Below, in pieces: positions 1 to 17,800 of a stretch of DNA of 64,000 bases. Below the pieces are notes generated by a model. That model saw only the letters and a list, made by a program, of their open reading frames with translations, was not told where the DNA came from and ran no database searches. The translations under genes and the position numbers were made by a program. Numbering within the stretch: position 1 is the first letter of the stretch; every line of letters begins with the position of its first letter. The stretch spans positions 15,748,001 through 15,812,000 of the forward strand of contig OZ320321.1 of NCBI GenBank assembly GCA_976226885.1. The letters are read 5' to 3'. This DNA is from Iphione sp. A-MEVVRFRX5 (taxonomy: Eukaryota).

Positions 1-143
1 AAGATGAGGGAAATCATTGCTCCCATTTATCAAAACATTTTCCCCTTAATATTTTAGGAACTTTATATTTGATTTATTTATCAAAGGTTTCTTCTTTTTA
101 ACTAATTTTCAAAAAGGTTTATTGCATGATTATGTGACACACA

Positions 144-180
144 AGTAGTGTATAGTGAGCAACCCTAAGACACAGGTTTG
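144..180 (+). repeat. Left terminal inverted repeat (37 bp)
   Basis: agtagtgtatagtgagcaaccctaagacacaggtttg matches the reverse complement of 21794-21830 at 34/37 positions. Confidence 0.93.
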
Positions 181-270
181 TAAGTCACATGACTGGTCAC
201 ATGACCGCTCTGACTGGTCACATGTCCGATCAGATGACCGGAAGTCACGTGATTAGTCATGTGACTAGAA
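181..270. promoter_or_regulatory. Left subterminal array of GTCAC(A/G)TGAC E-box-like palindromes with a CCGGAAGT ETS-like site
   Basis: At least five GTCACATG/GTCACGTG-type motifs; TGACCGGAAGTCACGTGA (235-252) recurs inverted at the right end (21767-21784). The regulatory role is inferred. Confidence 0.55.
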
Positions 271-339
271 ATTATCTGGATGACTAACCTTTGTCCATGC
301 ACGACTAGAAATTATCTGGATGACTAACCTTTGTCCATG
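263..339. repeat. 37-bp direct repeat, 40-bp period, in the left non-coding end
   Basis: gactagaaattatctggatgactaacctttgtccatg at 263-299 and 303-339; shorter ACCTTTG echoes continue to about 465. Confidence 0.9.
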
Positions 340-921
340 TGCGATGTACTTAGAACTGCAAAGTAACCTTTGTCCATAAGTGCTGTACCTGTCCCGCTTA
401 CGTAGCTGCTAATACATGTTTGCGTTGTACTTGGACACTGCGCTGGCGTTTGACCTTTGTCCTTGTGCACTGTAGAAACTTGTCTTGGTTACTTGACTGT
501 ACTTGTCTTCTTGAGGTGACCTTTAACTTTGTAAATAAATGTATTCTTGGTAGTAATCATTGTTAATTATGTTATGTCCGTGTCCTTATTATTATCATGT
601 ATCGAATAGGATAGAGTTCATACTACTGTTTCCTTTGACTGTAAGGCACGTATTGTTGGCTCATGAGTACATACGATAAAGCTATGCGTGATGTTACATA
701 ATGTCACGATGGGAGGATATAGAGGGAGTATACCCGAACAAAGGAAGAGATATCATACAATAATATAGTTTATCTTAGATTAAGTCACGAACAATGAGAG
801 AGGCGTATCCAATTGTTGTTGATAATTATATATAAGCAAGTAAATTTGATGGAGATGAGGTCATTGCTACTTTTTCGAACGTTTTGTGAGGAATTCATTG
901 CTATCTAACCTAATAGATGAT

Positions 922-2030
922 ATGGAAGTCATATCAGAGAACGTTTCTGTGCAGGTTGTGGGAGACTTTGTGAATATTGAAAGAAAGCGCGGAGATTCAA
1001 CAGTAAGGAAGATAAAAATATCTAAACAACTTTTCATTACTGCTGATGAAAAATGGGAGAGTCTACTAGAAGGAGATCAAGTGAAGATAACGGTGAACCA
1101 CAAGATATGGGTAATTACACTCCAACCTTACAATGGTCGTGAGTATATCTGCTTTGGACGTGAAGCAAGGAATGGAGAAAAATTACTGTAAGTATAATAT
1201 ATATTTAATTGCGTATAGACTATATTACTATATGTGGTTAATATTTTGGATTTCATTACTCATTAACATATTTTAATGAATATATTTTTTTCAGTCATGC
1301 ATCATTCAATCTTACGGAAGATGAATGTGTGGACGTAATTGAACGAGTAAGGAATGGGGAGAAAGCATCTGAGGCAGCTACAAGTGATGATAGTGACCAG
1401 TCGTCTTCTATTCTTCAAAGTAAAGAGGATGGGCCATCTCCCCGGAAGAGGAGGAGGAGGAAGAAGTCCAGTGAGCCAAAACCACCTAAAGCTGTTAAAT
1501 ATCAGAGATACTCATTTCAGTTGATATCCTGTGTTGATAAAAGTACTGTAAATAGTGAACGCTCATTTATAAATCGAGAATTTTGTGTGACAGAGGGGAC
1601 AAAACTTCAAGGACTTGATGATATGCTTGAGTTCCCTACTGAGAAAGATTTAACTATTGAAGTTAAAGAAATCATAGAGAAGGTTTATGCCTATATGCTC
1701 CAATTTGAATATAGATTAAAGATCAAGGAGTGGTGTAAAGGATGTGAGACAAATGAGAACAATGAATTAGCTCACATTCCTGGATGTGTGCAAGTTCCAG
1801 AAGAAGTGGACAAAAGAGCCCTGCACGCAGCTCACGTTAGAATATCTGTAATGCGTTTAGCAAGTAAAATTATGTACAAAATTTATGCAGGTAATCAGGA
1901 AATTGTCGACAAGAAGATTCCCATAAGTGATTCTATGTGTAGTAAAATTATTTGTGAAGGTGAGAAAAAAGCGGAGGCTGCATTGGTTATGGAGTTTGAA
2001 CAAGATTATGATATGATAGAAAAGATGTAG
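922..2030 (+). CDS. Spliced two-exon Maverick gene: PC4/whirly-like ssDNA-binding domain(s), basic NLS-like stretch, and CxxC-x9-H-x3-C putative Zn site
   Basis: Exon 922-1187, GTAAGT...TTTTTTTCAG intron 1188-1294, exon 1295-2030. The phase-2 junction joins ORFs 886 and 1329 in frame (..PYNGREYICFGREARNGEKLL-HASFNLTEDEC..), resembling the PC4 motif V..F.G..YI.IR...G..KGISLT.EQW. CKGCETNENNELAHIPGC lies near the C-terminus. The fold assignment is by eye. Confidence 0.7.
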
Positions 2031-3196
2031 AGCATTGTATAAAATGATTTAGAACAATGTAGTTTGAACAAGATTTATTATATAGTCACTATTATCATCC
2101 ATATACTCTTGATTTAGTTCAACCAATACAACTACATAATCATGTTATAGTTTCTGAGGTAAACACCATCATTTGTTTACTCGAAGTTGGATTCATTTAT
2201 ATATATTGTAGATTAATCACTATAACGTCCTGTTTAAGAGTATACTAGGTTAATGCTAATCTAACATGTATTAAACATATACTATTGGATACGAGTATTC
2301 TGCAAATAAAGATATCTATACTACTAACGTACATATGAGGTGAAAAAGTTATACCCTTACGAAGGCAACTTATGCTGATTGTTACCTTATAACCTATACT
2401 TGTTATACTATAACAGTGAGGTAGGTATTGGTGTAAACATAATAAGTCATTAAGTGTTATATTCAAATAGACTTACCGATATATTGCTTTACTAAGGTTG
2501 ATGTATGATAGATGTAGGGTAATATCACTATTTGCGTTCTATATCCTTGTAGTAGAAGTAGTAATAGTAGTAGTAATAGCATAATGTGTAAAACTAAAGT
2601 GCGGTAGGTAGGTAACGTTAGCACACGATGACTTGACAAGTTCTAATGTAAAAAATCAATCAGATAATCATTGTACTATCATTACACAACTATTTTTCTG
2701 GTCCAACGTCCGTAACTCTTATCAGATCATATCTAATCATACATATCATTACTCAGTCGAATGACCAAAGTCTGATCACATTTACTATAGAGTTATACAA
2801 TCTTGATTCATATATTATCTGAATAAACAAACTAATGAATCACTGTGTTGTTCTTGAATATAGCTACATATATCAGTACGCTAAGGTTTATGAATGAACA
2901 AAAACAATAATATTTGAACCCAATCACTACTACTTATATATGGTTAAGCATTGAAATTACTCGTTGTTCTTAGTAAAGTAATATCAGAACACTTCAGCTA
3001 TAGGAATATATTGTCATATACGTATATGTCCGTTTTATCTGGATATCGTCCAATATATAGCAGATACGTCTCGAGGGGGATATATATATACATACAAAAT
3101 ATCCCTATATGCTATTGTGCATATGTGAACTTAATGGTGTAAGTTCGAACTAATTGTCCATCACAAATAAAAGTTCTGGTGGTTATAGTAGCTCAC

Positions 3197-3313
3197 GTAT
3201 GGTAGGTTTCCTCACAACAGATGTAATATTTGGAATGAGTCGTTCAGAGCCTGGTGGAATGCAGCAGCGCATGTCATCGTTTTTTACTGAAGAGATTTTC
3301 TTTTTTCTTTTAG
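3197..3313 (-). CDS. Probable internal exon (39 codons, phase 1-1), likely downstream part of the large minus-strand gene across the gap
   Basis: TATTTCAG acceptor and GTGAGC donor; open frame KRKKKISSVKNDDMRCCIPPGSERLIPNITSVVRKPTI; length 117 nt. Confidence 0.45.
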
Positions 3314-3448
3314 CTGAAATATATAATGTATAGTCAGTTAGTAGTGCAGTGTAATTAGCTCATTTATAGCAAGTATTTGGAGTATATATATATATATATA
3401 CATATCAATTGAGCAAACTAGATAATATATATGATGTTTATACTCAAG

Positions 3449-3676
3449 NNNNNNNNNNNNNNNNNNNNNNNNNNNNNNNNNNNNNNNNNNNNNNNNNNNN
3501 NNNNNNNNNNNNNNNNNNNNNNNNNNNNNNNNNNNNNNNNNNNNNNNNNNNNNNNNNNNNNNNNNNNNNNNNNNNNNNNNNNNNNNNNNNNNNNNNNNNN
3601 NNNNNNNNNNNNNNNNNNNNNNNNNNNNNNNNNNNNNNNNNNNNNNNNNNNNNNNNNNNNNNNNNNNNNNNNNNNN
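3449..3676. other. Assembly gap (N run)
   Basis: Run of n. Confidence 1.
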
Positions 3677-6183
3677 GAAGTGAACGTCTCGGGGGGCAAC
3701 CGCTTACTCGCCCATGGTGAAGATGGTGGATGGGATTTGTGGGAGGATCAAGCAGTGCGGTGTCAGATGAAGTAGAGGATAAGCTGTCTCGCCTCGGACG
3801 ACGGGAAGTGGGCGTAGAAGGCGTCGATTTGGAAGTTGGAATATCATCCTGGAGTGATTGACGCCTTGGTCGTAACTGATAAGGACAGAGAGTTGCAGTA
3901 TCCGAGACTGTAGATGAAATACTAGATCGTCTTTTACCACGGGCAGTTTTCAATGATGGGGTAGATGATGATGAGGAAGATGCTCCTTCCTGTATAGGGC
4001 AGTTTTTATGGTGTAAATGTTTGTGGGGAGTAGAAGTAGATCTCTCATTGCTAGGCCAAGTTTCATCTGATGGTACGTCATCGTAAAAATCTGTGGTAAC
4101 TGTTAAAGGTGGTACTTTTTTCATGACTTCTCTGATGCGCTCAATAATTGACTTTTCCATAACTGGCATTGGGGTTGGAAAAGTATTTGGTGTAGCACTT
4201 TCACTTTCATACGTGATGTCATCATATGAATCTTCATCCATGTCCTTGGGTGGTGTCCCTAGAACTGCTCTCATTTCTTTAATAACTGAAGATGAAATAG
4301 GTGGTGGTGGAATAGGGAATGTATCTCTTGGAAAAGAATTAGTTGCACTCCTCGTTGAAGTAAATTCATCCCTGTTAGGTGTATCTTTAAAAAATAGCGG
4401 TGGCACTTCCATGTTTTCAGTAGTTGTTGCTTTGCTTTCATTATCATATTTAAACATGGAGGTGGAACACTGAGCAGAGGATGAAGTAGTAGTAGTAGCT
4501 GTAGTTTCAGATTTTGGTGAAGGCGTATCAATAAAATTAGATACTGGAAGACCACCTTGTGACGGTGAATCAACTGGAGAATCTGGTGGTGATAAAGTCG
4601 ATGGTGAGCAATGGGTGAGGGTATCCTCGTTAATGCTAGTTTTGGGCTTCTTCGACGGAGTGGCTCCCGCTGTTGAACATCCAGAAGATATCTCAGCTAA
4701 CAGGGTGTGAGAGCTAGATGAAGTGGAGTCAGTAGAGGTTGAAATTGCATTGGTGGGAGGAGGTTCAGGGGTTATTTCTGTTACCGGGTTATGGGAATCA
4801 GATGTGGTGGTTTCCATATCCTCGTGTACAGATTCATGAGATGATTCTGGAGCTGGAGAACGAGGATTAGTAGGTTCTGTGTTACTGAGTGGAAATTCGG
4901 AGAATAGTTCTGTATCTATAGGTTGAATATCGGTCTCAGATGCTATTCTTGACAACAACTCCATCAAGGGAACTATAGTAGTCTCATCGTTGGAAGTGAC
5001 ATCAGTTTCTCTGAGGGTTGAGCGTAATTTTGATAATACATCTGAACTTGCGTTGTGAGATGAACTATCAGTAGCTGTTATTTCAGAATTGGAATAGTGT
5101 GCTCTGGTGGATGATGATGATGATGCTTCATTCTCGCTATCCATAGTTGCGGTGCGGGGTGTTGACGAGGAAGGGGTGGCTGATGGTGGTGGTGGTGGTG
5201 GTGGTGGTGGTGCTGTTGGACGCAGTGAGGTTAATGCTGAGCATGATGGTTTTACTTCAACTGGAGTAGAGCAGTGAAGTGGTCTGGCAGGTGCTGTTTC
5301 TTTTCTAATCTTTTTAGATAATGCAGCTGAGGCAGTCAATGATGTCTTTCCTTGCATACTTAAATCCACATCAGAGGGGAGCGGGTGGCTTGGGTGACAA
5401 AGGTCTGGTCGAAGTGCCCGCCTGGAGTTTGGTCTATAGACGAGCGAGTCACTGCTGGAGAAGGGTGCTGTTGCGGAAATATGAGAAATAGGGCTGGAAG
5501 AGGAGGAGGTAGAAGAGTTAAGAGTGGTAGAATTTGAAAATGGGGGGTCAATATAACTAGCACTAGTCAACCCACCTGGATTGGACATTAAATCAGAGAA
5601 TGGTGGTGGAATACCACACTTTTGATGGGATTCTTTATTAGATACGGTTTCGAATATTAGAGAACGTGGCAATAGGTGAGGAGGGCGGCCTTTTGGTGTT
5701 TGGGGTACAAATGGTGCTTTAATTTTCGGGGGAAAATCGACATCGTCACTTTCACAAGTACAATTTATTTTTTTACTTTTGGAGATTGGTGATGAACTTT
5801 TATGGTGGGGTTTCATAACCATGACAGTATCTGAAAAGTGGACACTAGGGCATTCATTTTTTGGGGTACGAGTAGGAGAGAACATAGAAGTGGTTTTAGA
5901 TGTATGACCATTTGAAATAGCGTTGGGGTGGGAAATAGTATTCAGCGGGATAGATTCAAATTCTGAAGAAGTATCAGATTTTAGGGACAAGGAAGCAACA
6001 GCACAAGAAGCAGTAGCAGTAGCAGCAATTGGGATGCGTGGCAGTGGTAAATTAACAATGGTAGCATCAGCAACATCATCAGCAGTAGCATTGGAGGAGG
6101 AGGAGACACTCACAGAAGCGTTGGGTGAGGGCGATGATGATATTGATGATGAAGTCAAAGCGGGGCCATCAAATCCAGTACGG
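3677..6183 (-). CDS. Large Ser/Thr/Pro-rich disordered coding exon (>835 codons, runs into the gap); probable exon 2 of the LRR-TM gene at 6641-7399
   Basis: Uninterrupted ORF whose first Met is about 120 codons in; polypyrimidine-CCTTATAG acceptor at 6184; poly-Pro and repeated RRxS motifs (KRRSSISSTVSDTA, RPRRQSL, RPRRDSLSSTSSDTA). Confidence 0.8.
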
Positions 6184-6640
6184 CTATAAGGGGATACATA
6201 GAGGAAATAAAGAGTGGGGGGAGATTTTAGTATCAGTTTATTAATAGTCAATATAAATAATCAATTAATTAGCCAAATAATTGTGTTGCGGTAACGTCCA
6301 CAACAAATATGTACTGTGAGAAAACACATATCTAGGAAATTGGCCCCTTGGAAATTCCAGAGCGAAAATTTGGTAGGACGAGTTTTACTAGGTAAGGGAT
6401 TTTGACCTTATAATAATATATAATTCTGGCTAGTTTAATTCATGAGACTTAGGTGAGAAGGAAAACACATTTTTACATGTTTTATCTATTCTTAATTGAG
6501 GTCCCTATACCATGGTCAGTTTTTATTTTGAGGGGAGCCCCCAGGTGTTTCTTTAATACAAATTGGTTATAATGTTTAGCAGTTTGTCTTAATTGTTTTT
6601 TTAAATACACCTAATATAGTAGATTAATAATAATTAATAC

Positions 6641-7399
6641 TTACGCTTGGTCCGGAATTGGGGGAGGAGAAGGTGTGTCAGCACGGTAGAATGTGGTGTC
6701 ATTGTTTCTCTCGGAAAGTAGCCATCGAGTATAAATTTTATAGCGCATACAAGGATACGCAATGGATGCACTAACAAGTAGCAATAAGATGGTGCCAGTT
6801 ATTATAAACATAGCCAAGTCTGAAGACGGGAGTGAGGCTGAAGAGCGTGCAACTTCGTCGTTACCTCCACTGTTGGATAAAGTGTGGGTTAAAGGGGTGG
6901 AATCCGCCAAATGTCCATGTTTGGTTACTATCATAATAGTCCGAGTGATTTTAATTCCTCTACTTTCCGAATTGAATGATCCGCGGGAGGATTGAGTTGG
7001 GCTCTGCTCACTGACAGTCGTATGTTCCAAAGACAGTTGTTCATTAATGACACTATCTGGGGGAGTAGAGTCTGTGCTTACGAATGAAATCTTGAACATT
7101 TCTACTCCATTAAGACTTATAGCTTCAGCTTGCAATAAGTCTGGGAAGACACGCTGGAGTTGTTGACGTAAAGATGCTTCATTATCCACTATGTAGGGAG
7201 CGTTCAGGTACAAGTAATAGTATCCCGGATAAGTGCGACGTAGTGAAAAAAAATAGCTAGTTGCTAGTGAGTTGCAATGTATGTTGTTTTTCAAACATAT
7301 GCATCGTCTGCACAGTTGAGTATGGCATGATACTGGTTGGGTTGATATCATCAAAAACAAGACAATTCCAATGAATATCCAACCTTTAAAGCGTAACAT
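6641..7399 (-). CDS. Type I membrane protein A: signal peptide, LRRNT-like CxxCxC-x6-C cap, degenerate LRR, Ser/Thr stalk, TM helix
   Basis: MLRFKGWIFIGIVLFLMIS.. (signal); CRRCICLKNNIHC; YYYLYLNAPYI; TM LAMFIITGTILLLLVSASIAYPCM. The stop codon lies inside a GTAAGT donor (6644-6639) that is in phase with the acceptor at 6184. Confidence 0.8.
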   Translation of the reverse strand: MLRFKGWIFIGIVLFLMISTQPVSCHTQLCRRCICLKNNIHCNSLATSYFFSLRRTYPGYYYLYLNAPYIVDNEASLRQQLQRVFPDLLQAEAISLNGVEMFKISFVSTDSTPPDSVINEQLSLEHTTVSEQSPTQSSRGSFNSESRGIKITRTIMIVTKHGHLADSTPLTHTLSNSGGNDEVARSSASLPSSDLAMFIITGTILLLLVSASIAYPCMRYKIYTRWLLSERNNDTTFYRADTPSPPPIPDQA

Positions 7400-7939
7400 T
7401 GTGAGCGTCGTTCTTCCGGATGAAGTTCAAAATGAAACCGGGTAACACAGGCACGTGTTGTTTCGCATAAAAAAGACAGCTCTAATAACCGCGTAACAAT
7501 CCAAGATACCTATGAGAACTTGTATCTGGATTAATTAATCGATGAAAAAGTCAGGGAGTATCGAGTGACCAAGTCCGAGAATAATCCGAAAATCCAGTTA
7601 GCAGTATCAACATAAGCGGATATACTCGCAAGTAACAAGCTCCATCCAATAGCAGACGGTCGTGTCACTAGGATCACTATCACGCAACTGTCCCAGAAAG
7701 AGAGAGAGTAACGAGTTTTCAGGGTAATTTAAGAGTCTGTGTCGGGAAAGATGAGAAGAGGAAGGGGGTGGGGTAATGATAAGATCGGGCAATAAATAAA
7801 TTAATCCCACCAGTCCCTAGATAAAAGAGATGCCGCGAAGTAATCCTATCTCAAATAGGGAGAGAGGGGATAGTTGAAGCACATTACTACACAGGTTGGG
7901 AAGTGAACCAGTCGTAAAAGTGAAGGACTCTAAGGCAGG

Positions 7940-8753
7940 ATGGAAACGAGAATTATTACAATACTACTTCTGTTAGTTACTTTGGATTCACTCAACACCA
8001 TGGGAGAGATCTTTAGATGTCCAATCAGGTGTGGAAGATGTCAACCTCCTCTGATGAGATGTCGAGGGGATATTGACCCATTTACTGTGAGATTTGCTCC
8101 TGATGAGCTCATGGAAAGGACTAGACTGGGGTGGCTGTCGGATACAAGAAGTAAGAGAAGAAATCTTTCAAACATTTAAGAACGTAAAATTTATTGATAT
8201 TAGACATCAAGGAGTTGTTCTTAAATGTGAGACATTGTCACGAGTGCCATCTCATGTAAGAATTTTTTCAGATTGTAAAAGCTTATCAACAGAAAGTCCC
8301 ACTCCATTATTGACTACCATTTCTTCTCACTCGAAGCACCCGACCATACTATCTTCCATTCGCGCTATAACTACATTGATTGAGTCGACTGTCACCCAAA
8401 GAAAATTTGTCACTACGAAATCTTCTTTATCATCTCAGACAACGATTAATAATCCATCCCCAGATGGACAATTGACGTCTCTTCCTCCTTCAAAGTGCAG
8501 TAGTTGTACAAGTAGTGAAAATAACTTTTTATCAACAATTAAGATTGATTTACCATCTACTTCAACCAAAGGGAGCGTGGATAAGACAAACGGAGAGAAC
8601 AAAGGCATGGGGAAAAGTAAAGTTAGCTCAAATGAGAGCAATAAAGGATTTGGGATACCAGTACTAGCAGGGGCAGTTTCAGTGGCTGTATGCTCCGTGA
8701 TAGCGCTAGGTGTAACATGTTGGTACTGCATTACTAAATGCAAACAGTTTTGA
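7940..8753 (+). pseudogene. Type I membrane protein B: signal peptide, LRRNT, LRR, Ser/Thr stalk, TM; split by a +1 frameshift near 8118
   Basis: ORF 7940-8179 (signal peptide, CPIRCGRCQPPLMRC) and ORF 8094-8753 (LDWGGCRIQEVREEIFQTFKNVKFIDIRHQ, stalk, TM VLAGAVSVAVCSVIALGVTCWYC) fuse into 270 aa if one G is removed from GAAAGGA. Confidence 0.75.
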
Positions 8754-9409
8754 ATGTGGAAAATAGAAGAAAATGAGAGGAAAAAAAGAAGGAGAAGGAG
8801 AAGGAATTTACATCGTCATCAGGATAATTCATCATGTGAGGTAAGTATACATCATTATAATATATGTAATATATGTATTAACTCCTTCGTCTTTTCCTCA
8901 ATCCTTCCTCCCAATTGGCTGTTATTGCAAACTTGTATATTTATAATATATATATATGTTCACGTTACATATATTCCATTTATATGTTATAATGAGTCTA
9001 CATATATATACCTATTAATTATTTTAGGAAGACTTTTCATCAACGCCAAGAGACAACGCAAGGAACAGAAGAAATGTAAGTATAGATATATACTCAATAT
9101 TTATTCATAATATTATTATTAATGTTCATATATATCCACATCAGTACAATGCATATAGTTATAAGTAAGAGAGAGCACTAGTTTATTTAATATATATCAG
9201 TATATTCAACACACAGTAACAATACAATATTATGGATATAGAGAGCTCACTTTTAATTCAATACATATCATATCTAACGAGTGTCATAATTATCATGATA
9301 TATATAATGCATAATATAATTTTCTTTCCCCCGCTTCACCACCACTATAACTATTGGTCAGCTGATTGTAATGGAAGACATGGCAATGGGAGAACATGTA
9401 AGTATGTAA
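8754..9409 (+). CDS. Three small phase-0 exons (8754-8840, 9028-9075, 9362-9409): Arg-rich tail of protein B beyond an in-frame TGA, or a separate micro-gene
   Basis: GTAAGT donors at 8841 and 9076; TTTTAG and GGTCAG acceptors; reads MWKIEENERKKRRRRRRNLHRHQDNSSCE-EDFSSTPRDNARNRRN-LIVMEDMAMGEHVSM*; ends 5 bp from the convergent protease stop. Confidence 0.5.
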
Positions 9410-9414
9410 AGTTA

Positions 9415-9908
9415 TTAAAAATACTTATAATTCATTACAACAGCACGGTCATTAGCTCCCAAATTTGAATCAAATGACAAAATAAAATCGTTAAATGATT
9501 CCCCTCTCATCCTTGCATGAATGTAAGCAAGGCAATAGTGTCCACATACAGGTTTGTCACCTTGTATCCTAGTGACAGAATAAGTGTAACTGGGAGAATT
9601 AGCGACCAAAAAATCACGAATGCGCGCACGATGATTTTCAGGCGGCATCCCTAATGAATCAAAAACTCCCCAGGTAAACGATCTCCATTCGCTTTCAGAG
9701 GTGGGAGTAGTATGACAATCCAGTGTAGTCCCGCACAGTTCAAACAATCAGTATTAACAACAAACACATATGGCGATTCCTTTGGAGGGGGAAGCGGGGT
9801 TGATGGTAAAACCTCAAATGATTCAACCCATGGCGTATCCGTGAATTCAGCTAAACGTCTTTGTATATCATTGCTTGATAGTGGAGAATCAAGTGGTGAC
9901 GGTGACAT
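9415..9908 (-). pseudogene. PRO: Adenain-like cysteine maturation protease, 1-nt deletion frameshift at 9661-9665
   Basis: N-half VNTD...GLHW (catalytic His); C-half FDSLG...Q...CGHYC (Asp, Gln, Cys). Adding one T to the T5 run restores GEFFDSLG and a 164-aa ORF. Confidence 0.92.
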
Positions 9909-11274
9909 TACGTGCTAAGTCAATGTTCATAAGAGCTGGAAATGCCCCAAATATCACAGCAACACACGACTCTGGAAGTCCAGAAGCAAACTTGACTGTC
10001 AAACGAGTATTTCCTTTTCGAAGAGGGGACAACAGCTCTCGCTCTCGACACTTGTCTAAATCAAAGAGAAAGAGTGTATATCCATTGACATAGTCATCCT
10101 CTGTGATGTCTGGCAATTGTCGTTGATTCCATGTGGGGAACGAATCAAATAATGCAACATATGGTGTTGCTATTTTCCTAGTACCAAAATCAGGTTGAAA
10201 AGGACGACCAGGTTTTGACTCACCATCAACTTCGAATGCAATATAGTTGGCGTTAAAATGACGAAAATAATAAGGATTCTTCTGAGGGTGGCCAGAGTAA
10301 GCAGATGCTTCAACTAATCCCATTACAATTCTAAGAGGAACACGGTCTTGAAAAATATTTTCAACCACAAACTCGAAACTATTTGAAGAAAGTGTAAATG
10401 AACGGTAATCACTCCTTATGAAAGGGTATAAGGCTGGTGATTTTTCTAATTGAGTGCGATGACGTAGAATAAGTCCTTCATGAATACGAGCAAATGTAAC
10501 AAGTAAAACAGCACGCACCAATTTCAAGTGATAAGTCCTAGATGTACGAGTAGGAGGGGCAGGGGTAGGAGGAGAAGTGCCCCCTTCTTTGTCTCCACCT
10601 TCACCAGCAGTAGTTGCACCCGAAGTTGACAAAGGAGGGTACATGAGACGAAAAACATCTGTTGCTGGATACAGTTTGACATTAATGGGGACACCGTTGA
10701 GAATGGGTCTCTGCTGATCACTAATTCCGGAAAAGAGACGAGTCATCAATCGTGCCACTCCTCCACCAGCAGTTTTAGCAGAACGCTTTCCTACTGCGGA
10801 ATTCCGTATAGGGTCATCCATAAACAAATTGTCGTCTTTAGCAAAACCACAAATTTTCATCCACCCCATCTCATCAGACAGTCCAGCATGTAGTAGGGTA
10901 TCAAACATTACTTTATATGGATATAGACCTCCGACACCGGTATTCATGACGGTATGCTGAAGCGATAACTCCATGCGCTGAAACATAGTTGATGCTCCCA
11001 TATTGATGAAGCCCACTTTATCCACCGATCCAATTGGTGTTTTATCCTCTTTTAAAATTTGTAAATCAACCCGCATACGAGTCTTGTGTAGTATAATATA
11101 ATCAAGTGAATCATTGGGTATATTGAATTCCACAACACTATCTCCTGTCACATCCCCGATGGGAAGAAACTCTTTAACATAGAATTCTCTAATACCACTC
11201 TGAGTAGGTGGAACTTGAAACAAGTCGAGGTCAAGCCCGAATCCATCATCAGAATCTTGAAGGACGTGTGTCAT
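9889..11274 (-). CDS. MCP: Major capsid protein (double jelly-roll, Polinton PY/hexon)
   Basis: 461 aa; LDLF..PPTQ..I, VEFNIP...DYI.L, NPY.F.HF, F..DG...P, GYTLF.FDL motifs typical of Polinton MCP; located between the protease and core genes. Confidence 0.93.
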   Translation of the reverse strand: MTHVLQDSDDGFGLDLDLFQVPPTQSGIREFYVKEFLPIGDVTGDSVVEFNIPNDSLDYIILHKTRMRVDLQILKEDKTPIGSVDKVGFINMGASTMFQRMELSLQHTVMNTGVGGLYPYKVMFDTLLHAGLSDEMGWMKICGFAKDDNLFMDDPIRNSAVGKRSAKTAGGGVARLMTRLFSGISDQQRPILNGVPINVKLYPATDVFRLMYPPLSTSGATTAGEGGDKEGGTSPPTPAPPTRTSRTYHLKLVRAVLLVTFARIHEGLILRHRTQLEKSPALYPFIRSDYRSFTLSSNSFEFVVENIFQDRVPLRIVMGLVEASAYSGHPQKNPYYFRHFNANYIAFEVDGESKPGRPFQPDFGTRKIATPYVALFDSFPTWNQRQLPDITEDDYVNGYTLFLFDLDKCRERELLSPLRKGNTRLTVKFASGLPESCVAVIFGAFPALMNIDLARNVTVTT

Positions 11275-14812: not shown

Positions 14813-17800
14813 CTAATCCATCTCACATCTGATATCATCCCATATCTCTCCTAATCTATTTCTCCCCCGGAACTCTTCTGGTGATGATATCATCACCATT
14901 GACTCATCCATCCCAACCCCCCAATACTTGTCTTTATTAGCATATACAATGAGGTTGGTATGATTTAAGGCTGATGTCACAATATTCCCAAGTGCTCTTG
15001 CTTTTATTCGACTAACTTCTTTCATCACGTTGAAACGGACGCTGTCTCTCCATTCCTTTTCTTTCTTTATCATATTGGCATACATTGTGTATTCTGTCCT
15101 ATTCGTAGTTGATTTAATTGCTCGTCCTATTTCTTCTTCTTTGTGGTACTCCGCCATCCGATAAAGGAAGAGATGCTCTGCGGACACAAACCTGTCCCCC
15201 ATGTCACATTGGTAAAGAGGACTCAGAACATGCCAGGGATGACTGAATATGTAATAATCCCCCACTCCATTCTCCCATGGACACAGTGTTAATTGGAGTG
15301 GTGATGTGTGTACCCCATCATCATGAACTCTTCTTTTTGCATAAAAGTATGTGAACCCTTCTCGAGCCAATTCATATGTACACACCGTTCCCATCCATAC
15401 CCTAAAGCCAACATTCCGTCCTCCCTTACTTTGACGAGTCTGTAGTACACTTTCATATGTGTCTATCGGATCCACAACATAAGCTTTTGACACCCCCTTA
15501 CAACTCATTTTTATGGTAGTAGGGGATGTTTCTCTACTAGTCAGAACATAAGTCTTACTAGTCAAAGCAATGATTTTATCACCCTTGGCTTCTTCTTTCA
15601 TTATGCCGGGCACGCGTCGATCAAAACTGTTATGATGTGAACAACATTCTCTCATGAACCAACAAGGGTGTTTATTGTCATCACAGTTATCCATGATATC
15701 TTCTCGATATTTTCGTCGTCCTTCTTCCGTCATAGCCCCAACAATTGAAGTACTAGCCAATGCTATATAAGCACTGTCTGTGTCCATTGTCACATACTCA
15801 AATTGTGATCGTTCCATCAGCTTATCAATGCAATCATAATAAAATGATAGCATGACCATCTTGGCATACTGAAGGATCGAAAACCCCACGTAGACAGGCA
15901 TATCTAATGTTATACGGTTTTTGGCCATTTCCACTTCATACATCCCATTAAGCTCCGTCATAGCTCTGAATCGAGGAGAATTCACCGCTGCTGCTGTTTG
16001 GTTTGGGGTTGTAAAGTACTTCACCGCATGCTGCTTTTCTTTTTGCATGATAATGCCTCCGTACGCAGAATTCTCGATCAACTTCATTGTATCACCAATA
16101 ATAGCCATATCTGGATCACAGTCTCCTCTTCTTCTCGCCTCTGTTACATCATCAACGAACGACTTGAAACATTCCCTAGGAATGAACTCAATTACTTGAT
16201 GAACTTTGGTGACGACAAGACCATGTTCTAGGTACCATTTCAACAAAGGTGACATTATTAGCGTTTTTCTCGCACTCATTCCTCCAATCAATAATCTTCT
16301 CGGTCTCTTGGAAAGGTGTTGTTCTGTTACATATTGCCTCATATGTTCTCCAATATCCTCAAAGTTGACGGTAGTATTTCCAAATAGAGGACACATCTCC
16401 CCGAAGTATGCTGAAGGAGTTACACTACGTTCTTTTCCTTTTGGCCAGCTATTTGGAACATGTATATCTACTTCTAGCGCACCAAAGAACAAATCAGCAC
16501 ATACTCCTTCTAAGATCTTTTCTTCTGTCACTTTCCCCCTATGTATCCTGCTAAAAGTCAGAGTAAATTGTTCTGCATGATTTCTTAGTTTACTATTTAC
16601 TACAAGCATGGAAGAGAATTTACATTCTTCCATCGCCACTAAAGTATAGCCTTGCTGCTCAATGAACTTCTTCCTAATTGCTGTACGTATTTCTCGTCTC
16701 TTTCGCTCTTTTTCATTTGTCTTCCCCTTCATACATTCATGCCCATGAAAGTAACATCCGTTAAATTCAAATACCAACTTCAGCGGCAATGCAATACCAT
16801 CTACTCGATATGGTCCAATCCAAACTTCACCCTCATACCTGTTATGAGCGTGAGCAATATGGATGCCTCGTGCTTTCGCTTCCCACTCCATCCAAATCAC
16901 ACTTGTGGTACCCAATGGAATTTTCTCTCTCTTGAAGCCAGTCTGAACCCTACGTCTAACATATGTACCTGTCGCATGTTTCTTCCCAATACAGCTCAGG
17001 TACAATGAATTAGCGTCAAGTCCCAGAATTGACTGACATTTATTTGGGGAATCTCTGATGAATGTCACATCTTTTTCATGAGCCCTTGTGAAAACAATAG
17101 CTGGTCCTCCGACTATATTCTTCCTAAATATCTGATATATATCTTCTTCCGATGCTCCAAATGTTGGAAATCTAGCACCATTGCTCAAAGCAGATTGAAA
17201 TAATAATCTTCTCGCAACACCAGGGGCAGAAACAGCTATTTTAAAAACGTCCATACCCCTATCAAAATAAAATTGTTGCAGTCGAATCACTCCTTCTACA
17301 AAGGGCCCAACATCCAATTTATTATAATATATTAAAAGATCCCGTAATGTCTGCATTCCTTCTCTCTCCCACGTTTTCTCCAAATCTTCGTATTCTTCTC
17401 TAGAAATATTGGTTCCCCTTAATGAGGAGTAAAATGCTTCATGATCCGGTAATTGTGATTCTGATAATCTTTCAGGTCCATCTAGGTATTCGTAACAGAA
17501 AACACCCTTTCCAACTTCTACGCCATACGCCTTTAGAAACTTGGCGTAAGAAACACCCGGAGTTAAATACTGTGCCACATCCAGAAACTTCAGCTCTCCA
17601 TTGTCAACTGATATATATGTGTTATTTCTTTTAATGACGAAGAGTTCATTTTTTTCTTTTTTTAGTCGGCTGAGCAAGACCCCCTTCATTACATTCATGT
17701 CATACTTTCCTGAATTGAACCCCAAAACAGGTAAAGTATTGACATACTGCATGAACCTTTCTGTTACTCTTTTCAGACGCTTCATCATTTGTGTATGTGG

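Follow-up and report, generated by a model that had tools for sequence, protein, structure and literature searches.

A predicted spliced accessory gene family in the Mavericks of an Iphione genome, encoding a putative single-pass membrane protein with nucleosome-binding-like motifs at the end of a long disordered tail

Maverick/Polinton elements (adintoviruses) are described as carrying pPolB, a chromodomain integrase, an ATPase, capsid-like and protease open reading frames (ORFs), terminal inverted repeats (TIRs) with AGTAGT ends and an accessory region, and those of vertebrates have been reported to be intronless (PMC8097293). The adintovirus accessory genes listed in one report are PLA2X, GasderminX, cupiennin-like, Oncoid and Bcl2/IAP genes, a list without an entry that resembles the gene described here (PMC8502044). 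Nematode Mavericks encode the transmembrane (TM) fusogen MFUS-1, with a signal peptide and a single TM segment, and harbor intron-bearing genes described as host cargo (10.1101/2022.07.12.499685), and dinoflagellate Maverick elements contain introner insertions (PMC11957031). Here we analyzed 64,000 nucleotides of the genome of Iphione sp. A-MEVVRFRX5 (assembly GCA_976226885.1, contig OZ320321.1, positions 15,748,001 to 15,812,000; hereafter "the window"), in which a 21.7-kb Maverick/Polinton (144-21830) with pPolB and integrase genes, putative ATPase, capsid-like and protease-like frames, AGTAGT TIR ends and an accessory region carries what appears to be a new, spliced accessory family, gene A. 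In contrast to vertebrate Mavericks, three accessory genes in this clade look spliced, subfamily after subfamily. Gene A also differs from the nematode intron genes in being a fixed part of the element, in 18 of the 18 subfamilies checked for core genes, and its predicted product reverses the proportions of MFUS-1, which is mostly gB-like ectodomain with a short tail.

Gene A lies on the minus strand. Its exon 1 (6645-7399, ATG at 7399, 755 nt, ending in phase 2) comprises, by frame and alignment, a predicted signal peptide, a small Cys-capped ectodomain, a Ser/Thr stalk, a predicted TM helix and the start of the tail. A GTAAGT donor starting at 6644 and a TAG acceptor ending at 6184 delimit intron 1 (6184-6644, 461 nt, phase 2), which is predicted from conservation to join exon 1 to exon 2 (readable part 3677-6183), a disordered Ser/Thr/Pro-rich tail that stays open for 835 whole codons up to an N stretch (3676-3449) in which both the exon end and its donor fall. 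The initial annotation of this locus had proposed this fusion of two ORFs, and its coordinates and phases proved exact. Its 935-residue downstream ORF does begin without a Met behind a phase-2 acceptor, although that length counts N codons and 835 are readable, and its two-exon product of more than 1080 residues holds in so far as 252 + 835 = 1087 codons can be read, whereas a probable second intron and 9-codon third exon had been missed. The full product is predicted to reach about 1,097 residues, some 880 of them in the tail, a total that leans on sister copies. Hydrophobic peaks occur at residues 1-25 and 195-213, with none in exon 2 (Kyte-Doolittle), in agreement with the signal peptide, TM segment and long disordered tail that had been proposed. 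The predicted signal peptide (7325-7399; an N-terminal hydrophobic stretch is found in 20 of 20 aligned rows) is followed by the conserved 86-residue ectodomain (7070-7327) and by the TM helix (6749-6814, from hydrophobicity and alignment), with a conserved Pro-Cys at its end and then basic residues. Hydrophobicity and the positive-inside pattern fit a predicted cleaved signal peptide and one TM helix, from which we infer a type I topology. The juxtamembrane segment varies in the alignment except for the Pro-Cys and an aromatic-basic patch.

A search of the host's own genome (1.18 Gb, 89 contigs) with exon 1 gave 204 matches (591 candidates, 150 scored), and 60 copies picked to span the match list formed a first set of 18 subfamilies at 75% identity that are 25-60% identical mutually. 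Of the 60 copies, 53 have a phase-2 GTRAG donor over the exon-1 stop codon, as do 16 of the 18 subfamilies; the control values are 8 of 114 for stops of long ORFs and 527 of 15131 for all kinds of stops in adjacent stretches. The two exceptional subfamilies have GTAGGT or GTATGT, also in phase 2. In 56 of 60 copies, the most pyrimidine-rich YAG around the beginning of the downstream frame lies in phase, although it is not always the acceptor that yields the conserved start, and intron length ranges from 143 to 461 nt (143-406 among representatives) while the phase is constant. The initial annotation had hinged on sister copies keeping donor and phase, which most of them do. For a second set of 20 further copies, predictions were written beforehand; these represent 15 new subfamilies and one known, the new ones matching the first set at best at 30-39% across exon 1, or at 53-54% when only the ectodomain is compared. 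All 18 copies with an intact frame (two are frameshifted) have a phase-2 GT 31-51 codons past the TM/juxtamembrane motif, under a permissive rule, as GTs in other phases also occur. The donor covers the stop codon in 10 of these 18, and the remaining 8 have GTATGT or GTACGT, with the frame reading on into unconserved intron. Tails in this set are mostly shorter, at about 430-650 codons. From these sequence comparisons, we regard the splice model for intron 1 as nearly certain.

Two further readings of this junction were weighed. A short-tail isoform made by intron retention had been suggested, and is unsupported because a phase-2 GTAAGT or GTGAGT always spells an in-frame stop codon; as a selected product it was rejected, given that read-through in 8 of 18 second-set copies enters unconserved intron. 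Alternatively, there may be two genes, or an exon 2 fed mainly by another first exon, yielding one short membrane protein and, separately, a soluble nuclear one. The intron 1 junction is, after all, predicted from sequence, and a soluble chromatin binder would need no special transport, but across 18 subfamilies neither exon 1 nor its 5' flank has an alternative GTRAG donor that is kept in position or phase, internal donors occur in only 4 of 18 introns, and motif conservation begins before the first Met of exon 2, which comes 100 codons in (a FESIPL-type motif precedes it in 12 of the 15 subfamilies having the motif in frame). We therefore consider two separate products very improbable.

A second intron is predicted at the far end of the tail. 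In 14 of 18 subfamilies, the last codons of exon 2 spell RRSxR and a GT comes next, the GT being present by construction as the pattern required Val. In 37 of 43 such copies, a Leu codon comes directly after the strongest acceptor 120-450 nt downstream, compared with 53 of 317 background acceptors. The pattern fails in one subfamily with Phe and in the subfamily of the window itself, where the Leu acceptor ranks second or third but comes with a TACTAAC branch point. In the window copy, the terminal RRSx motif starts at 3677-3698 (minus strand), a phase-0 donor follows its last Arg in sister copies, and the predicted exon 3 (3284-3313, minus strand; CAG acceptor, TACTAAC branch point at 3343-3337) has 9 codons, Leu first, and then a stop. 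Within the second set, the terminal motif is split by the intron in 4 copies, with Leu or Ile next, and lies whole within exon 2 in 7 (e.g., RRSARI, RRSSRI), which argues for selection on the peptide itself rather than for a side effect of the splice signal. We judge the intron 2 model to be very probable.

The tail consists of 41-52% Ser/Thr/Pro, with conserved islands as well as poly-Pro and serine clusters. Its best-kept motif, FESIPL (5943-5960, upstream of the first Met of exon 2), is one that we take to be LIR-like. It is followed on the minus strand, likewise by conservation, by a VxF with a hydrophobic pair (5817-5849) that resembles a PP1-docking (RVxF) site and lacks the basic residue here, by RRxLRPD (5400-5423), kept in the window's clade, and by two RRxS-SS-T-SD(T) serine clusters (3759-3932), presumably kinase clusters, on either side of YQLRPRR (3861-3881). 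Two other assignments were set aside: SSTP as a Polo-box site was rejected (12 of 16 tails, shuffle mean 8.8), and a WH2/actin-nucleator reading of a helix motif was considered, the motif being kept in just 3 of the 20 second-set copies. The RVxF site of PP1 is used by many viruses (PMC10807198), and YQLRPRR resembles the chromatin-binding sequence of foamy virus (PMC6021111).

At the tail end, an RRSxR[LIV] or LRSGR-type motif is present, whole or intron-split, in 15 of 18 subfamilies of the first set and 12 of 15 of the second (27 of 33), in tandem pairs in many of them, compared with R[RH]SxR in 165 of 4800 shuffled tails. In the second set FESIPL survives in 13 of 20 copies, and the terminal motif is also kept. 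Described binders of the nucleosome acidic patch include HMGN (RRSARLSA) and Dsup (RRSSR, within RRSSRLTS; PMC12487698), Dot5 (RRSARIAT; PMC13347269), KSHV LANA (LRSGR; PMC3945288) and foamy-virus Gag (GYNLRPR; PMC6021111). These proteins carry their Arg-anchor motifs in disordered chains, and the tail ends of gene A are identical to them over 5-6 residues in several subfamilies; like an HMGN-type binder, gene A has RRSxR[L/I] in a disordered region, with the last residue supplied by the predicted exon 3 in the window's clade. All five are soluble and have neither signal peptide nor TM segment, and no homology extends past the motif.

Because the tail-end motifs resemble viral nucleosome-gripping sequences, we read the gene A product as a possible membrane-to-chromatin tether and phospho-scaffold, a reading in which our confidence falls slightly short of even. 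It would be a type I protein inserted into the endoplasmic reticulum, with a small domain resembling leucine-rich repeats (LRRs) in the lumen or outside, and its tail would act as a long unfolded linker carrying basic import signals. The tail might reach chromatin via the inner nuclear membrane or during reassembly of the nuclear envelope, where short Arg motifs at its end would grip the acidic patch of the nucleosome, with switching provided by basophilic/CK1-type phosphorylation and by the PP1-type site. Its purpose may be to keep at the membrane either host chromatin or the DNA of the element, free or newly synthesized, and so to serve retention, integration or exit. There is a precedent in yeast, where membrane proteins on long linkers are actively imported, and inner nuclear membrane proteins of the Heh1/Heh2 type share with gene A a TM segment and a long disordered linker with basic signals (PMC4695851). 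Unlike these, gene A has no LEM or MSC domain (Pfam), is predicted to be type I with a signal peptide, and is virus-encoded. A literature search, with most subscription journals, supplements and Repbase outside it, found no published membrane-to-chromatin tether of viral origin and no gene A-like protein.

In a complex prediction, host H2A-H2B with the 45-residue tail end of subfamily L051 scored 0.60 against 0.00 for the best control, a weak result in which runs share 43% of contacts and the partner pLDDT is 43 or more. Among solved pairs, 51 of 78 reached the mark used, 5 of the 78 at 0.60 or below; among mismatched pairs 2 of 108 did, and all 4 passing mismatches were at 0.60 or below. The score may reflect memory of solved peptide-nucleosome structures.

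Several points weigh against a chromatin tether. The peptide in this prediction came from a sister subfamily rather than the window copy, and the controls were not Arg-rich. A tail of 880 residues is far above the usual size of inner-membrane cargo. The motif patterns had been derived from the first set of subfamilies, and in the second set RRxLR and the helix motif persist in 3 of 20 copies each, the serine clusters in 2 of 20 and GYxLR in 1 of 20. The terminal motif is absent from 6 of 33 subfamilies (one missed by a length filter), GYNLR is degenerate in the window's own subfamily, and the exon 3 acceptor is not the top-scoring one there. A basic residue precedes VxF in no more than 10 of 18 subfamilies; VxF without regard to that residue occurs in 13 of 16 tails. 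Lastly, RRxS doubles as an ordinary kinase site, and clusters of basic residues as ordinary import signals.

The same terminal motifs, together with the very large tail and the short, stalked ectodomain, would also suit a Notch-like release, in which a membrane-parked precursor is shed and cleaved by an intramembrane or viral protease and the freed tail enters the nucleus and attaches to nucleosomes, as a tether like LANA or a regulator of chromatin. The element encodes a protease-like gene of its own (about 9415-9890, minus strand), frameshifted in the window and whole in 16 of 18 other upstream stretches, but no conserved cleavage site was found and the juxtamembrane segment is variable; we consider this unlikely.

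The ectodomain bears on a different reading of gene A. Capped by CxxCxC...C, it was modeled at pLDDT 90 as a beta/alpha fold that is weakly LRR-like, as judged from alignment, model and fold searches. No LRR family was matched among 31 gene A ectodomains in a profile search, a sequence search of the PDB gave no LRR chain at E ≤ 10 and chance matches only, and Foldseek returned nothing at E ≤ 0.001, with LGI1 as its most probable row. In a wide fold search, the best Z was 5.0 and about 30 of the top 50 rows were LRR by title, tied with unrelated folds; GPIb-IX chains reached Z 4.9 (rmsd 3.5, 66-67 residues aligned). Atlas matches to C21orf62/ECPIP (0.80) and decorin (0.76) fell under the lead threshold. 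The LRRNT/LRR ectodomain of the initial annotation thus has no profile match and keeps a weak fold resemblance at Z of about 5. GPIb-beta/GPIX-type and TLR ectodomains similarly combine a small Cys-capped ectodomain, a stalk and a single TM segment, whereas gene A lacks an LRR profile match and a TIR domain, has a Z tied with unrelated folds, and bears a vastly longer tail.

The clear mini-LRR protein of the locus, by repeat match and modeled fold, is instead gene B, a predicted type I membrane protein encoded head-to-head with gene A on the plus strand, 540 bp upstream (7940-9397; exon 1 to 8840, predicted micro-exons 9028-9075 and 9362-9397). It is broken in the window by an ectodomain frameshift and an early stop (8751-8753), and its ectodomain is unbroken in 55 of 60 copies. 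Its profile matches TLR3 (E 4e-8), its top Atlas matches are all LRR (0.92), and its fold rows are LRR with a best Z of 6.4 from a pLDDT 61 model; Pfam searches with single members gave no match, and a profile comparison of the gene A and gene B ectodomains found no match between them. Gene B has its own conserved donor and conserved micro-exons of 12-16 codons, one with an acidic-hydrophobic motif, and a further exon is suggested in some subfamilies. It is a likely co-expressed partner of gene A.

With such a neighbor, matching TLR3 repeats, the gene A product could be a surface or endomembrane signaling scaffold, a decoy receptor or a superinfection-exclusion factor, with Arg-Ser sites serving kinases or 14-3-3-type proteins and no role at chromatin, much like adenovirus E3 membrane proteins. 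The predicted type I topology and LRR-like ectodomain, the poly-Pro and serine clusters, and the fast divergence of accessory genes between subfamilies (25-60% identity, against 52-87% for core genes) are consistent with such a role, as was proposed by the initial annotation, whose scaffold fits the conserved motif islands but was put forward with the terminal chromatin-type motifs unseen. The recurrence of three types of acidic-patch motif at the tail end would be left unexplained, as would the Leu/Ile kept across the intron, and Pfam finds no TIR, kinase or other signaling domain in gene A. We hold this to be rather unlikely. In its fullest version, the tether proposal holds that an animal Maverick clade has evolved a spliced module comparable to adenovirus E3, with two mini-LRR membrane proteins, one of them a full-length TM acidic-patch tether with HMGN/LANA/foamy-type motifs and an 880-residue linker that, under the control of kinases and PP1, joins the nuclear envelope to host chromosomes or element DNA; this is possible but doubtful.

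Outside the host genome, exon 1 of gene A had no homologue at E ≤ 0.01 and its ectodomain profile none among longer proteins. A profile search of 1.84 billion representatives returned two repeat proteins matched over 31 positions, rejected as chance. Viral contigs gave no match for gene A or gene B, and metagenome contigs, queried with gene B only, gave two matches of 20-23 residues.

The element itself is flanked by inverted TIRs of 53 nt (144-196 and 21778-21830) with AGTAGT/ACTACT ends and by CACACA on both sides as a 6-bp duplication, which is weak by itself because the flank is a CA repeat. GTCACATGAC-like palindromic boxes are repeated near both ends, just interior to the terminal repeats, and a 40-nt tandem duplicate lies just inside the terminal repeat (262-339). 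Long open frames on the minus strand make up the core: a 1603-codon pPolB frame (DNA_pol_B_2, E 1.8e-4, below the Pfam cut-off), an ATPase with weak Pox_A32/FtsK matches, an integrase with a chromodomain (rve, E 6.7e-9, over the cut-off), and frames that we take to be capsid-like and protease-like from their position and familiar motifs, for which a Pfam search gave no match. The capsid-like ORF has 16 unnamed relatives at 28-39%. The pPolB frame (14813-19624) also has C2H2 zinc fingers at its N terminus and, toward its C terminus, a NADAR domain (E 1.6e-12, over the cut-off). Polymerase, integrase, AGT-repeat TIR ends and the 6-bp duplication all place the element among the Mavericks, while the splice signals kept in gene A, gene B and a gene at 922-2030 depart from the intronless genes of vertebrate elements. 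The window copy is defective, with both protease and gene B frameshifted. Gene A was expected from the initial annotation to lie inside Mavericks and outside the known Polinton core set, and both are supported; the capsid-like gene is nearby in 18 of 18 subfamilies, and integrase, ATPase and pPolB are present in 17 of 18 (12 kb fetched).

The third accessory gene (922-2030, plus strand) consists of frames of 110 and 262 codons that look like one spliced gene, with a phase-2 donor at 1188 and an acceptor ending at 1294; the phase-2 GTAAGT donor recurs in 11 of the 12 subfamily representatives with a located junction. Its first exon is, in what we take to be a weak likeness, PC4-like, and a Cys/His cluster is seen in the second. 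Among the second-set copies, 17 of 20 have this gene and 13 of 20 the gene B motif. Retroelement-like frames occur in or beside some copies (L042 at about 5800-10000, L080 downstream, L051 upstream). Beyond the Maverick, a GC-rich segment of the window (43057-48229) holds a 1121-codon minus-strand frame that is probably a host gene.

This Maverick clade is represented in one genome by at least 33 diverged subfamilies, many with multiple near-identical copies, which points to long diversification and recent activity in the host. Together, the subfamilies offer a natural mutational scan of the motifs. ORF-based annotation treats Mavericks as intronless; a gene such as gene A would be reported as two unrelated ORFs and its micro-exon would be missed, and whole classes of spliced Maverick genes may be hidden in this way. 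The findings touch on how Mavericks enter, persist in or exit the nucleus and on the roles of their accessory genes, and if the anchored tail does bind nucleosomes, gene A would encode a viral membrane-to-chromatin tether.

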